A DNA stretch of 64,000 nt from an uncultured cyanobacterium (GTDB lineage Bacteria; Cyanobacteriota; Cyanobacteriia; Cyanobacteriales; CAWCAG01). Below the pieces are notes generated by a model. The model ran no database searches and was not told the origin of the DNA. It saw nothing but the letters and a program-made list of their open reading frames with translations. The stretch lies in NCBI GenBank assembly GCA_963793425.1, contig CAWCAG010000005.1, positions 1,888,001-1,952,000 of the forward strand, written 5' to 3'. The translations under genes and the position numbers were made by a program. Position 1 is the first letter of the stretch, and every line of letters starts with the position of its first letter. Shown here one piece after another: positions 53,131 through 59,073 of this stretch.

Positions 53131-56100
53131 TTAATGCTTACTGGTGATTGCTTGTTTGATTTTTCTCCACTGTTGCCGTAGGACAATGGCTAATTTTCTT
53201 TGGAAGCGTTTGATACGGGCGATGAGGGGAAAGTAGCGGACTTTTTCAGGATAAACGGGAATAAAATCTAAGTTCTCTTTGCTGTAGCGGACTGCTAGAC
53301 TTCTGGCGAGAGGAAATATTTCATCATTATAAATGTTTACTTGGAGTAGTTTAATTAGCTTTTCTAAAGCTTTTAAATTACCGATTTTACCCAAAGCCTC
53401 TACCGCCCTTGATCTAAAATAACTATTAGAGTGATTAAGAACAGCAATTAAAGCTTCTACTCCTTGGGCATTGCCGATTTTACTCAAAGCCAATGCCGCA
53501 CTCAATCTAACATCACTATCAAAGTGATTAAGAGCGGCAATTAAAGCATTTACTGCTTGAGTATTTCCTATCTTACCTAAAGCCTCTGCCGCACTCCATC
53601 CAACATCACTATCAGAGTGATTAAGAGCAGTGATTAAAGCATTTACTGCTTGAGTATTTCCTATCTTACCTAAAGCAGATGTCGCACTCAATCTAACATC
53701 ACTATAAGAGTGATCAAGAGCAGTAATTAAAGCTTCTACTGCTTGGGCGTTGCCAACTTTACCCAAAGCCTCTGCCGCACTCCTTCTAACATAAATATCA
53801 AAGTGATTAAGAGCAGTAATTAAAGCTCCTACTGCTTGAGTATTTCCTATCTTACCTAAAGCCTCTGCCGCACCACTTCTAACATCACTATAAGAGTGAT
53901 TAAGAGCAGTAATTAAAGCTCCTACTCCTTGGGCATTACCAATTTTACCCAATGCAAATGCCACACTCAATTTAACATCACCATTAGAGTTATCTAAAGC
54001 AGCAATTAAAGCTTCTACTCCTTGGGCATTACCGATTTTACCTAAAGCAGATGCTGCAATCCATCCAACATCACTATCAGAGTGATTAAGAGCAGTAATT
54101 AAAGCTTCTACTACTTGGGCATTATCAATTTCACCTAAAGCATTTGCTGCAATCCTTCTAACATCACTATTAGAGTCATAGAGAGCGGTAATTAAAGCTT
54201 CTACTACTTGGGCATTATCAATTTTACCTAAAGCATTTGCTGCAATCCTTCTAACATCACTATTAGAGTCATAGAGAGCGGTAATTAAAGCTTTTACTCC
54301 TTGGGTATTACCAATTTTACCCAAAGCCTTTGCTGCAATCCATTTAACATTACTATCAGAGTCATCAAGAGCAGTAATTAAAGCTTTTACTCCCTGGGGG
54401 TTACCAATTTGATCCAAAGCTAATGCAGCACTCAATTTAACAAAGATATCAGAGTCATCTAAAGCAGCAATCAAAGCTTCTTCTACTCCTTGGGCATTAC
54501 CGATTTGACCCAAAGCAGATGCTGCAATCTTTCTAACATTACTATCAGAGTCATCAAGAGCAGCAATTAAAGCTTCTACTCCCTGGGGGTTAGTTGTTTG
54601 ACCCAAAACATCTGCCGCACTCCTTATAACAAAGATATCAGAGTGATCAAGAGCAGCAATTAAAGCTTTTACTGCTTGGGCATTACCAATTTTACCCAAA
54701 GCATCTGCCGCACTCGATCTAAAATAACTCTCGGAGTCATTTAAAATAGCAATTAAAGCTTCTACTCCTTGGGCATTACCAATTTTACCCAAAGCCTTTG
54801 CTGCAATCCATTTAACATTACTATCAGAGTGATTAAGAGCAGTAATTAAGGCTTCTACTGCTTGGGCATTACTTATTTCAGCAAAAATCACTACAACAGA
54901 AGTTACAAATTCAGCATCAGGATAAGCAAGCCAAAACTGATAAACTTCCTCAACAATCCTCCCAACTGAAGCATCCTCAACCTCTTTCCCCTCAGCAACA
55001 CATCGCCCCGCCAACAACAATAAAGTCCGAAAAATATCATCCTTCTCCCCCATAATCGCCTGCAACAAGGGCAAAGGATCATCCATCAATCCTGCGAACA
55101 AAGTTAAAGTCTCATGCCAATCAAAATCCCAAAAATGTTCCTTCGCCAAAGCCACACCATTACTTGCATAGTTTAAATAAGCTGCGGTCAAATACTCCTG
55201 AAAAGTGCGATGCAAAAACAGATACTTATTTCCATCCCTGTCTAACTTCTGAATAATGCCATCCTCTTCCGTCAACTCCCCAATCAACTCCGTAGCGGTA
55301 ACATTGCGAAAATCACTACCACAATCCCCCCGCAAAAACTCTTCAATCTTCTCTCTCAACTCCCGCAACTCAAAAACCTCTTGACTCTGGCAACTAAACT
55401 CATAAGCCAAAAACTCCAACAATTCCGTCTTCGCCACCACCCAACCAGATTCAGCCCCCAAACGCCGATTATCCTTGCGCCATTGACTGAGCATATACTC
55501 AACCGCTTTTTCATAAACCTGACCACGTTTAGCCGGGAGAGTAATACCCTTTTCTTGATAAAGGCTGCAAAGTAAAGATAACAGTAAAGGATTCTGTGCC
55601 AAACCACTGATTTGCGGTTTCTGGCGTAACTCCTCAATTAACCCAGAAGCAGAAATATCTTTCTCTTCTCCCTTCCCCAGAGAAACTGAGAGAGATTCCT
55701 CCGCATTCTTAAACCAAGTCTCAATATACTTTTCCGTTTGCCCTTGATTAAAAGGCACAATCTCCACATCCTTCCCCCCAGCAATAAAACTGCCCCCATA
55801 ACCAACAATGCGGGAGGTGCAGATTATCGGACAAGGATAATATTTGGCGAAGCGGTTTAACTTGTCTTTTAGTTCCTGGCGCTGATCCTTCGGCACTTCA
55901 TCTAAAGCATCCAACAACAGCAAACATTCACCCTTAGCTAACTTATCTTCCAAGAGATGGGCAAGGTTAGGATAACTATACCGATAATCCCGTTGTAGAA
56001 GTTGGGGAATAATCTCAAAAATTTCTCCTTCCCTTTCAGCTAACTCTGAAAGCCTGAATAGCAAGGGAAAAAACTGTTCCGGAATAGTTTTTTCCTGATT

Positions 56101-56760
56101 TAAAAGCTTTTCCCTTTCTTCTTGGGCTACCCTCAAAGCTTCTCGCCGCAACAAAGTTGACTTTCCCATGCCCGGATCTGCTAAAACCATGATTCTGTTA
56201 TGGTTTCGCTTCGCTTCTACCCAATCAACTTGAGTTTTCCTTGTTTCTTCAACTATTCCTTTCAGGGCATAAGCTTTTTTTAATTCCGCTTCCGACTCGC
56301 TATAACCCCAAGTAGTCTCAACTTCGTGGCGATATCTTCTTTCTAAAGTGACTTGAATGGGAATGTACTGCTCTTTAAAAATAAAACTATTCCGCGTGTG
56401 GAATAGTTTTAGATATTTGTATTCCTTTGCAACCTCCTCAAGAAACTGACAAACTTCTTCTGTCGTCGGCGGCTCTGATTTTTTGTTAGCAGGTTCAGAA
56501 TCACTAGGTAAGTTAGAAACTTGTTCTTGCAAAACCTCTCGAATAACTTGCTTCAGTCTTTCTGCTTCAAAACCTTGATAAGTACGATTGTCAAAGGTGA
56601 TTTTTTCCGCAGTCAAGTTAAAATTCCCTTCACCCAACTGCACATTATTGAAATCCCCGGTAATATTCAACTCAGCTTTTAATTGAGCTAAATCATTCTT
56701 ACTATGTTTACCCGCAACAATACGTTGTAAAATTTCGCTCCATTTAGAGGATTTAGCCAT
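53131..56760 (-). CDS. NLR-like STAND NTPase: EAD10-like/RHIM-like N-terminus, NACHT domain, 16 HEAT repeats
   Basis: Walker A ADPGMGKST, Walker B LLLLDALDE, CTSR, NPLLL, FLHRTFQEYL. HEAT/PBS-lyase-type 31-aa repeats follow. Confidence 0.92.
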   Translation of the reverse strand: MAKSSKWSEILQRIVAGKHSKNDLAQLKAELNITGDFNNVQLGEGNFNLTAEKITFDNRTYQGFEAERLKQVIREVLQEQVSNLPSDSEPANKKSEPPTTEEVCQFLEEVAKEYKYLKLFHTRNSFIFKEQYIPIQVTLERRYRHEVETTWGYSESEAELKKAYALKGIVEETRKTQVDWVEAKRNHNRIMVLADPGMGKSTLLRREALRVAQEEREKLLNQEKTIPEQFFPLLFRLSELAEREGEIFEIIPQLLQRDYRYSYPNLAHLLEDKLAKGECLLLLDALDEVPKDQRQELKDKLNRFAKYYPCPIICTSRIVGYGGSFIAGGKDVEIVPFNQGQTEKYIETWFKNAEESLSVSLGKGEEKDISASGLIEELRQKPQISGLAQNPLLLSLLCSLYQEKGITLPAKRGQVYEKAVEYMLSQWRKDNRRLGAESGWVVAKTELLEFLAYEFSCQSQEVFELRELREKIEEFLRGDCGSDFRNVTATELIGELTEEDGIIQKLDRDGNKYLFLHRTFQEYLTAAYLNYASNGVALAKEHFWDFDWHETLTLFAGLMDDPLPLLQAIMGEKDDIFRTLLLLAGRCVAEGKEVEDASVGRIVEEVYQFWLAYPDAEFVTSVVVIFAEISNAQAVEALITALNHSDSNVKWIAAKALGKIGNAQGVEALIAILNDSESYFRSSAADALGKIGNAQAVKALIAALDHSDIFVIRSAADVLGQTTNPQGVEALIAALDDSDSNVRKIAASALGQIGNAQGVEEALIAALDDSDIFVKLSAALALDQIGNPQGVKALITALDDSDSNVKWIAAKALGKIGNTQGVKALITALYDSNSDVRRIAANALGKIDNAQVVEALITALYDSNSDVRRIAANALGEIDNAQVVEALITALNHSDSDVGWIAASALGKIGNAQGVEALIAALDNSNGDVKLSVAFALGKIGNAQGVGALITALNHSYSDVRSGAAEALGKIGNTQAVGALITALNHFDIYVRRSAAEALGKVGNAQAVEALITALDHSYSDVRLSATSALGKIGNTQAVNALITALNHSDSDVGWSAAEALGKIGNTQAVNALIAALNHFDSDVRLSAALALSKIGNAQGVEALIAVLNHSNSYFRSRAVEALGKIGNLKALEKLIKLLQVNIYNDEIFPLARSLAVRYSKENLDFIPVYPEKVRYFPLIARIKRFQRKLAIVLRQQWRKIKQAITSKH
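53377..54867 (-). repeat. Intragenic tandem array of 16 x 93-bp HEAT-coding units
   Basis: 1491 bp = 16 x 93 + 3 (one unit has an extra Glu). Consensus AQ(A/G)VEALI(T/A)AL.(H/D)S.S.V...AA.ALGKIGN. Confidence 0.92.
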
Positions 56761-56769
56761 AGCTAACCT

Positions 56770-57175
56770 TTACGGCTTATTCGAGGAATGATCAGTAGAA
56801 TCTTCGTTATGCTGAATATTGACGTTGTTATTGTTATTGCCAAACTGAACATTATTGCGATCGCCTGTAATCGTCGGACTGTTAGAAAGAAGTCCGCTAT
56901 TAGAAATAGTATCTTGGCTTTGATTAGCAGGATTAATGGGCTGCTTTTCCGGAGCTGGATCTGATTTTCTGAACGTGGCGTATTCCCAACAAGACTGCCA
57001 AACCAGTAAGCCCCCACAATACTAGCTGAATCAAGTCTGTTAGCCCTTGAATAACATTACTATTCGCTTCGACAAACTGTAACAAAACTGGCATCCATTG
57101 TTCAGCCGATAACGCTAAAGCAGCAAGTAGTAAAACTACCAAGGTTGGAACGATCCACCTTGAAGAATTGTTCAT
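56770..57175 (-). pseudogene. Frameshifted two-TM protein with an Asn-rich RHIM-like C-terminus (candidate NLR effector), about 134 aa if restored
   Basis: The 80-aa ORF (two hydrophobic helices) continues in the +1 frame as YATFRKSDPAPEKQPINPANQSQDTISNSGLLSNSPTITGDRNNVQFGNNNNNVNIQHNEDSTDHSSNKP*. That stop lies 9 nt before the NACHT ATG. Span 406 bp = 135 codons + 1 nt. Confidence 0.75.
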
Positions 57176-57291
57176 AGCAAAATTAAGTAAATTGAGGAGT
57201 CAACCATATTAGTAACCATGGTAGCCAAAAAAGTTTTGGCTAGTGGCTAGTGGCTAACGGCTAGTTGTTCTCACCCTAGCTCCCCATCTCC

Positions 57292-59073
57292 CTATTTCCC
57301 CAACTCCCCATCTCCAGGAGAAGTATCAAGAAAAGGGGAACTTTTTGGTTCAGAATCTTCTGGGGATGAATTAGAAGGATTAGGATTAGGAGAATTATTT
57401 TGCAACAAAAAAGTTGCTTCAAAGCGAGTACTTTGAGAATCTATAACTGTTGTCGTAATACCAAAAGCACGAACCCCATTAAGTAAATCCTTTTGCCCTT
57501 CCGGAAAAGCTAAAGTTCCTTTTTTGGCCATAAAATTCTCGACATCAAAAAACAACTCACTATTAACCGGGGCAAAGCCTTTTTTAACTACTTGCTTAAA
57601 CAACTGATTCGATGACAAATTACGTTTCGGTTTTGGTAAGATTTTGTTACTTATTGGAGCGCCTAAAGAAAAGAAAAATACATCTTTTGATAGCCAACCT
57701 CGTACAGCTTCTATACCACCCAGGGGAGATGTCCAATTAACCACAGGTTGCCCCCCTTGTTGAGCAGATTTCACCTGAAATTGATATCTTGTACCCATGG
57801 CTTCATCTAATTGTTGTAGGGCTTTCTCTCCGCTAGCACGATTTTGAGTTTGGGCAACGGTAATTAAAGCAGCCCCCAATTTTACCCCACCTCTATCAGT
57901 AAAATTAATTAAGTTATCTTCAGTAATAGGAGTCAAGGCAAAGGCGAAATCTTCTCCTAACCAAGGGAGAAAATCTTCTTGCCAACTCATGCCCGTGTTT
58001 TCCTGAATAACATTAGCAATAGTCTCTTCCCCAAAAGGTAAAAGGGGCAACAACTCCGCTTCACTGTCCCAACCTTGCCATTGAGTAGGAAGATTTTGCC
58101 CAGCAAAGAAAAATAAAGTCTGTTGGGGTAAGTGGGAAGCTAAACTCTTTTCCTTAAACTGGGTTAAATAATTCCCAAAAGAATTAACTGGCTGCATAAA
58201 TTCTCCCGGTTTTCCCCAAATTATCCCTTCCCAATGCAGAGATTCTGGGGTTAAGCTTAAGCTGCCTGTCACTCCTTGCCGATATTGAGTAGTAGATTCT
58301 GGGGCAGGAGCAAGAGAATTAGTTTTGGCGGTGGCAACTATTGTCGGAAAATGCCCATAAAAACGAGCAAAATCAACTTTTTTGCCTAATTGTCTCAAAG
58401 CTTTTTGATAACTAGAATCAGCTTCTAAAGATGTCTTTTCTTGGTAGCTATCAATCACTTTTTCCATGGCTTGGGAGTTGTTAGCAATAACCAAAAAACT
58501 TTTAATAATTGTTAGGGAATATCTTTGAGATTGACTATTTTGAATCTCTTCAATCTCCACTCCTTTATAGGTGCGTCGCAGTTTCTTACTTTCCAGGTCA
58601 GAGTTAGGAGAATCCAAAAGCTGCCCTGCTTGGACGGAATTCTCCATCGGTAAAATAAATACCATTGGCTTAACCAAATCCTCTGAAGGAGAAGCATTCG
58701 GTACAATTAAGGCAGATTGAGTTGGGGGCAAATAAGCAACGGTGATCTCCTCTCCTACCCAAGGTTGGATATGGGTTTCATAACTATAACCATTGGCTTG
58801 CAAAAAAGTATTGCTAAGCTCAGAAAAATACTTTTTAATCCTCTGTTGACTTCCCTTTGTCCCTAACTGTTGCAATTGCTGCCATTGTTCTTCATCCGTA
58901 GAAATTGAGGCAGCAAAAATCACTTCTTGGGGAACTAATTCTGCCCCCGTTAGCTTTTGCGCCGCAAAAAAATAGGGCCGTACCAACAACCAATAAATTG
59001 CTGTGCCACTACCGAGTAAAATAGCCGTACCTAAAGTCGGTAAGAGAAAGCGCCTAAATTTTTTCTTGACCAT
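57292..59073 (-). CDS. DUF3352-like membrane-anchored protein
   Basis: N-terminal TM helix, GAELVPQ, IQPWVGEEIT.A, YKGVEI, D.LPWLGE.FAFA. Confidence 0.8.
   Translation of the reverse strand: MVKKKFRRFLLPTLGTAILLGSGTAIYWLLVRPYFFAAQKLTGAELVPQEVIFAASISTDEEQWQQLQQLGTKGSQQRIKKYFSELSNTFLQANGYSYETHIQPWVGEEITVAYLPPTQSALIVPNASPSEDLVKPMVFILPMENSVQAGQLLDSPNSDLESKKLRRTYKGVEIEEIQNSQSQRYSLTIIKSFLVIANNSQAMEKVIDSYQEKTSLEADSSYQKALRQLGKKVDFARFYGHFPTIVATAKTNSLAPAPESTTQYRQGVTGSLSLTPESLHWEGIIWGKPGEFMQPVNSFGNYLTQFKEKSLASHLPQQTLFFFAGQNLPTQWQGWDSEAELLPLLPFGEETIANVIQENTGMSWQEDFLPWLGEDFAFALTPITEDNLINFTDRGGVKLGAALITVAQTQNRASGEKALQQLDEAMGTRYQFQVKSAQQGGQPVVNWTSPLGGIEAVRGWLSKDVFFFSLGAPISNKILPKPKRNLSSNQLFKQVVKKGFAPVNSELFFDVENFMAKKGTLAFPEGQKDLLNGVRAFGITTTVIDSQSTRFEATFLLQNNSPNPNPSNSSPEDSEPKSSPFLDTSPGDGELGK

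Follow-up and report, generated by a model that had tools for sequence, protein, structure and literature searches.

A frameshift separates a putative two-helix membrane effector from the motif it shares with the adjacent EAD10-NACHT sensor in an uncultured cyanobacterium

In the window, i.e. the whole 64,000-nucleotide stretch of DNA from an uncultured cyanobacterium that was analysed here, a small gene for a predicted membrane protein stops shortly before a long NACHT gene, while the +1 frame stays open beyond that stop and encodes a tail with a motif resembling the N-terminus of the NACHT protein. A previous sequence-only reading of the locus took this for a frameshift that cuts the motif-bearing tail off a putative effector, and left three options for its origin, a sequencing error, a recent inactivation of a toxic effector or a reversible switch. 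The locus therefore raises the questions of whether the tail is a coding sequence, where the frame changes, whether the break is present in the DNA itself, and what it has done to the two genes. The features concerned are as follows.

56933 to 57175, minus strand: 80-aa ORF, ATG start, stop codon taa at 56935-56933
56770 to 57021, minus strand: open stretch in the +1 frame, 83 codons plus stop, with the linker and the tail motif
56933 to 56996, minus strand: zone holding the frame change, as placed by the junction scan against the family HMM
57011 to 57015, minus strand: G5 run, the alternative slip site of the sequence-only reading, disfavoured
56812 to 56871, minus strand: effector-side motif ITGDRNNVQFGNNNNNVNIQ, in the +1 frame, tblastn coordinates
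56605 to 56664, minus strand: motif as found on the sensor, ITGDFNNVQLGEGNFNLTAE, at residues 33-52 of the NACHT protein and within EAD10
56533 to 56760, minus strand: EAD10 (PF19954), N-terminal domain of the sensor, residues 1-76
53131 to 56760, minus strand: EAD10-NACHT-HEAT repeat gene, 1209 aa, intact

The 80-aa ORF with its stop at 56933, the last +1 stop at 57022-57024, the run of that frame to 56770 and the G5 run were all found again where the sequence-only reading had placed them. Residues 1-64 of the 80-aa ORF form a conserved two-helix membrane domain, followed in residues 65-80 by a basic stretch, for which the ancestral frame may be this one or another. Between its last stop (tag, 57024-57022) and its closing taa (56772-56770), the +1 frame contains no ORF of at least 30 aa starting with ATG, GTG or TTG in the ORF list, and one CTG and four ATT codons were the only other candidate starts seen by eye; when GGAA at 56986-56983 is read as one step, a continuous product of 134 aa is obtained, which contains LAVLLGYATFRK. 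The ATG of the sensor gene is located 9 nt past the tail-frame stop and 172 nt past the stop of the 80-aa ORF, and the 9-nt spacing fits the long ORF. Both flanking ORFs, of 1209 and 593 aa, are intact. Ten phycobilisome-family matches in the genome of the locus identify it as cyanobacterial, and a promoter and terminator scan yielded counts not above those of shuffled sequences. On the upstream side, the space from the DUF3352 gene to the small gene contains a short interspersed repeat (57227-57315); a 701-base stretch around it has 14 matches in its own genome, itself included, and 15 in a same-genus genome, and the contig depth rises several-fold at the repeat in all four metagenome runs described below.

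Openness of the +1 frame is by itself weak evidence of coding, since the third frame is open as well, with an 84-aa ORF of GTG start at 57017..56763 on the minus strand. Codon usage over 56935-56773 gave log-odds of +7.2 bits for the +1 frame, -26.4 bits for the third frame and -102 bits for frame 0, and a family HMM built without the protein of the window matched the +1 tail (9.4 bits, E = 6.6e-5 at Z=1) and gave no match to the third frame. The 84-aa ORF was accordingly rejected as coding on its poor codon usage and the missing family match, and the openness of its frame is a side effect of the Asn/Gln-rich composition. Compared by BLASTP with P0003, an intact 125-aa relative, frame 0 showed 32 identities in 66 positions (E = 1e-20) and the +1 tail 11 in 21 (E = 6e-4), with a nearly equal spacing from helix 2 to the motif in P0003 and in the read-through product. 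Codon usage, the family HMM and the P0003 alignment thus agree with the earlier claim that a one-base frame change separates the motif-bearing tail from the membrane domain.

The position of the frame change was determined by a junction scan, in which one base was removed at each position in turn and the product was scored against the family HMM. Junctions from 56996 to 56933 scored on a plateau (120-127 bits) that peaks with 127.3-127.4 bits at 56975-56970, and on these scores the frame changes past helix 2, in a zone from about 56996 to 56933. This zone reads as a plausible basic stretch in either frame, so that the change may lie at any of its bases; the net change is +1 base or -2 bases. 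Removing one A at 56983-56984, as the sequence-only reading had proposed, falls on the plateau (126.5 bits) and gives a continuous 134-aa product, but it is indistinguishable from the neighbouring sites, and junctions in the two A4 runs scored 125.7 and 122.4 bits. The G5 run at 57011-57015, offered there as an alternative slip site, was rejected, as a junction in it scored 110.9 bits, ∼15 bits below the plateau, owing to the conservation of helix 2 in frame 0.

These scores bear directly on the idea of a reversible phase-variable switch, in which slipped-strand mispairing at a homopolymer would turn the effector on and off. Contingency loci usually carry runs of about 7 or more. The G5 run and the two A4 runs in or near the zone are what such a switch could use, but the runs are short, the homopolymers inside the favoured zone are A2 and A4 only, and the longest nearby run, the G5, lies outside it and gives a junction 15 bits worse. 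Neither a long homopolymer nor, as a contingency locus would have it, a short tandem repeat was found at the break, and no length variant was seen in the contigs of the four runs, so that a switch must be regarded as very improbable.

A sequencing or assembly error in the window has in its favour that a single-base indel is the commonest assembly error. The stretch is present in four metagenome runs (X1-X4) of one study, with depths of 6.5, 10.1, 24.7 and 4.75, and in no RNA run, and the comparison was made on assembled contigs, in which minority intact alleles or slippage products are invisible. In each of X1-X3 one contig extended across 56500-57500 with 3 base differences and 0 gaps, and in X4 two contigs covered the same range, again with 0 gaps; hence, no indel or length variant was present across the zone in the contigs of the four runs. 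The differences at 56587, 56734 and 57463 were common to all four runs and, with the codons read by eye, are synonymous third-position changes in the flanking genes, two of them within the sensor gene. X4 had two extra differences at 56941-56942, at a depth of 4.75, which leave the frame unaltered. Because all four runs carry SNPs relative to the window, their contigs are not copies of the window assembly, and the absence of an indel from separately assembled contigs that differ from the window at three other sites makes an assembly error unlikely, against which the intact adjoining ORFs of 1209 and 593 aa speak as well. Weighed together, these observations leave very little room for an error; the break is genuine DNA, and it arose before at least two slightly different strains parted. 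In addition, the exact 80-aa product is recorded on five contigs, and no longer allele was found among proteins of 44-140 aa (word-indexed search, 22 candidates, the single match being the product itself). The only allele on record is therefore the 80-aa form, and gene callers do miss the tail, as had been anticipated from the sequence.

The gene downstream of the break encodes an intact sensor of the STAND NTPase type. Residues 1-76 matched EAD10 (PF19954) with 47.0 bits, where the cut-off is 24.1, and a six-frame scan gave 51.8 bits for this domain. A NACHT domain was matched over residues 190-352 with 28.8 bits against a cut-off of 26.7, and 13 HEAT_2 stretches were detected. The tail motif is identical to sensor residues 33-52 at 11 of 20 positions. 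Across the 5.28-Mb genome the best non-self match of the tail is the sensor N-terminus, and the reverse is also true; the sensor ranks 1 of 3459 ORF N-termini for the tail match, and the Smith-Waterman score of 56 between the tail and the NACHT N-terminus was reached by 1 of 5000 shuffled tails and by 0 of 5000 shuffled N-termini. Only when the +1 frame is read does the effector at this locus have a C-terminal motif in common with the N-terminus of its NLR neighbour. The whole EAD10 gave no match on the tail at E ≤ 1, so a second whole EAD10 on the effector, by which the EAD-coupled arrangement is recognised, was not seen here, and a scan of the genome for EAD10 at E ≤ 1 found two sensor N-termini only.

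The other of these N-termini belongs to a second EAD10 pair of the same genome, which is intact (L020, G000:C5:21207-24434, ORFs 1759-2727 and 241-1731, both on the minus strand). A 322-aa caspase-like gene (PADLOC caspase, 2.3e-15) stands directly before the second EAD10 gene, which encodes 496 aa with an EAD10 of 81.4 bits and a C-terminal part matching PADLOC PD-T4-6 (5e-38), and the last 20 residues of the caspase-like protein match the second EAD10 at 13 of 20 positions by hand count. In both pairs the effector carries the short motif and no recognisable whole EAD10. That ∼20 EAD10 residues are common to effector and sensor in two pairs of one genome suggests that the catalogued EAD10 and the amyloid-type signalling motifs are descriptions of one device.

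A phmmer search with the read-through product against 1.84 billion representatives yielded 118 family representatives at E ≤ 1e-3, the 80-aa protein of the window among them, and 10 at E ≤ 1e-10, with the window's own 80-aa product as the sole match at E ≤ 1e-30. The part common to the family is the N-terminal ∼65 residues, and an HMM of 116 relatives, built without the protein of the window, matched the 80-aa product over residues 1-75 with 106.2 bits (E = 1.5e-34), which makes it a member of the family. AlphaFold predicted helices at 3-37 and 39-68 in read-through numbering, with block pLDDT of 75-93 over residues 1-70 and down to 45-61 in the tail. The two-helix domain had no model match in Pfam, PADLOC or NCBIfam, and the effector family appears unannotated and undescribed as judged from these three HMM libraries and a literature search that included PMC7159879. 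In the ESM Atlas, P0003 scored 0.84 at best, against unnamed clusters that gave no lead.

Among the other 117 representatives, 18 are of at most 100 aa, 53 of 101-200, 22 of 201-400 and 24 of more than 400 aa. NACHT or NB-ARC follows the same N-terminal domain in 19 of the 22 long relatives scanned, indicating that the domain is an N-terminal effector module of NLR-like NTPases, and the long members usually then have FGE-sulfatase-like, TPR or HEAT ends. In six of the all-in-one proteins (P0016, P0021, P0066, P0069, P0070 and P0088) the membrane domain is followed by an ITGD.N-type motif and then by the NTPase; the arrangements seen in these sequences suggest that split forms may become fused, and fused ones split, through gene fusion or fission at the motif. 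P0092, of 195 aa, has two copies of the tail motif, similar to the double pseudo-repeats that certain amyloid signalling effectors have been described to carry (10.1101/2020.01.06.895854).

Intact stand-alone members are 115-135 aa long and end in ITGD.N.V-type or ..QGENN.V-type motifs, and the intact small members, including P0003 (125 aa), P0012 (115 aa) and P0060 (125 aa), align to both halves of the read-through product, the nearest intact relative being 42% identical. All three complete stand-alone loci (L015, L017 and L018), which come from further cyanobacterial records and represent one cyanobacterial subgroup, contain the membrane domain, the linker and the C-terminal motif in a single ORF of 125-134 aa, which the window does not, and the next gene opens with a matching motif. 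The partner encoded by this next gene is ∼490-510 aa long, carries a C-terminal bacterial SH3 domain (SH3_3), has no NTPase match and is not an NLR. In six of seven metagenome loci, the linker after the domain continues in the frame of the domain. The seventh, L032, has many breaks, some inside the membrane domain, and L027 and L030 have one break each, at different sites inside the NTPase-bearing part; the breaks in these three loci could be errors or decay. Relatives thus do not keep an 80-aa product with its stop codon beside a +1 frame free of coding conservation, as would be seen if the sequence-only reading had been mistaken; in the nearest ones the tail is in frame with the domain, and the +1 frame is conserved as coding sequence.

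The lengths also raise the alternative that the 80-aa two-helix protein is now the working product, with a membrane role of its own, and that the tail is a decaying remnant. The 80-aa form is the sole allele on record and common to two slightly different strains, and the 18 representatives of at most 100 aa among the 117 would be its counterparts, but short representatives may be fragments, such as P0012 and P0052 from contigs of 541 and 1870 bases, and none of the 18 is a near relative. Moreover, the protein has no visible link to the sensor without the motif, and the tail is so far without decay, which renders this alternative improbable.

A DNA search of 40 related genomes found no orthologue of the locus, with matches only at query positions 1-74, i.e. 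the interspersed repeat upstream. In the same-genus genome G001 the DUF3352 neighbour is 80% identical and other genes lie downstream. There (L025, G001:C6:243800-254000) the genes after the DUF3352 orthologue encode a haemagglutinin-like repeat protein of 913 aa and a protein of 861 aa that by its sequence looks like the TPR/CHAT type, and the absence of the NACHT pair from L025 indicates a variable region. A profile search of 400 other genomes of the phylum gave 0 matches, a weak result in that at most 10 candidates were scored per genome and the profile contained the read-through product; the cyanobacterial family members were found by another route.

The conserved single frame of the relatives also bears on translational recoding, by which +1 slippage at a low rate, e.g. 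at A-AAA-A (56968-56965) or A-AAA-G (56948-56944), would keep a lethal full-length effector at a very low dose. Where AAA precedes A or G, tRNA-Lys would be able to re-pair in the +1 frame. Such AAA-A and AAA-G sites are present after helix 2, the tail frame is open with an intact motif, and the sensor gene is intact, all of which recoding would account for. However, there is no frame change after helix 2 in any of the three stand-alone loci or in six of the seven metagenome loci, so that no conserved shift site of the prfB type was found, and the runs are of only 4 bases. By inspection, the sites also have no in-frame stop, no obviously rare (hungry) codon and no Shine-Dalgarno-like stimulator at prfB-type spacing, and recoding is accordingly unlikely. 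Still somewhat harder to credit is the break as a dosage device, with rare +1 slippage at the A-rich sites giving a trace of full-length effector, or with a separate tail peptide modulating the sensor; if either were true, the population would harbour a lethal membrane effector in latent form, beside an intact sensor and a tail that is intact and still open.

The explanation that we consider probable is that an inactivating frameshift has become fixed in a module of two genes for cell death or defence, through which the effector has been uncoupled from the sensor and the module disarmed. Out of the three origins first considered, inactivation is thus the favoured one, and sequencing error (four runs, no indel) and a switch (G5 ∼15 bits worse, short runs) are unlikely. 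The ancestral upstream gene would have encoded ∼134 aa, composed of a two-helix membrane hairpin, a disordered polar linker and a C-terminal motif of ∼20 residues, with the N-terminal hairpin as the presumed membrane-damaging effector. By analogy with EAD- and amyloid-motif-coupled NLR/effector pairs, we infer that the activated and oligomerised NACHT sensor would recruit or template the effector via the shared motif, and that this recruitment would drive the assembly of the membrane domain. With the break, translation would stop at residue 80 and the membrane domain would be made without its coupling motif, presumably leaving the sensor with no effector to address, its only matching partner in the genome being out of frame.

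Several observations fit a disarmed module less comfortably. The tail frame is still open and its motif intact, which agrees with a recent break but also with continued use of the tail; the sensor is intact and its two SNPs are synonymous, whereas a dead module might be expected to decay; the 18 of 117 representatives of at most 100 aa may be contig-end fragments or short forms with a role of their own; and the closest intact relative, at 42% identity, leaves the locus with no orthologue in the unbroken state. The contig data, coming from one study, are also blind to intact alleles in the minority.

As an event, the frameshift is ordinary and probably amounts to a natural loss-of-function allele in a suicide or defence effector. 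It is of use in laying bare how the pair is wired and in pointing to a widespread two-helix effector domain, which is used in three ways, i.e. fused to NACHT/NB-ARC sensors, coupled to them by a short motif, or coupled to SH3-ended partners that are not NLRs. In addition, the disarmed allele and its read-through form make a convenient matched pair for tests of motif-dependent activation.

A parallel of the pair is HET-S/NWD2 of Podospora, in which an effector that damages membranes is encoded by the neighbouring gene and has its C-terminal motif templated by the N-terminal motif of an NLR. The same logic would apply here, with NLR-side and effector-side motifs in adjoining genes, but there is no sequence relation, the host is bacterial and the effector is broken. 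In bacteria, the adjacency and the shared motif indicate that the system would work like the EAD-coupled or BASS-type NLR/effector pairs. As far as described in PMC7159879 (Kaur, Burroughs, Iyer, Aravind 2020), the core NTPase of EAD-coupled conflict systems recruits an effector encoded next door, and EAD10, of mixed alpha+beta character, is one of the domains that recruit effectors. The locus resembles these systems in its STAND NTPase with an N-terminal EAD10 and in the effector gene adjacent upstream, and differs from the systems described there (PMC7159879) in that the effector has ∼20 residues matching the beta part of EAD10 only, that its effector domain is a two-helix membrane hairpin, and that the effector copy is out of frame.

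Conversion of an effector-side motif by an NLR-side motif has been described for the Bell/BASS (10.1101/2020.01.06.895854) and Bab/Agp (10.1101/2024.11.07.622273) pairs, and as in both, a small membrane-targeting effector here has the motif at its C-terminus and the adjacent NLR-type gene has it at its N-terminus. The identity of the motif pair, 55%, is like that of Bell/BASS, for which the published cross-seeding pairs are 43-56% identical (Dyrka et al. 2020, 10.1101/2020.01.06.895854). Unlike Bell of ∼100 residues, the effector here is of ∼64 residues with two hydrophobic helices and has no Pfam match, and unlike in Bell/BASS, the NLR-side motif lies inside a 77-residue Pfam domain preceded by a helix. 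Finally, as for Bell/BASS (10.1101/2020.01.06.895854), the host belongs to a lineage of multicellular type, the cyanobacteria, and all-in-one fusions of effector and NLR exist.
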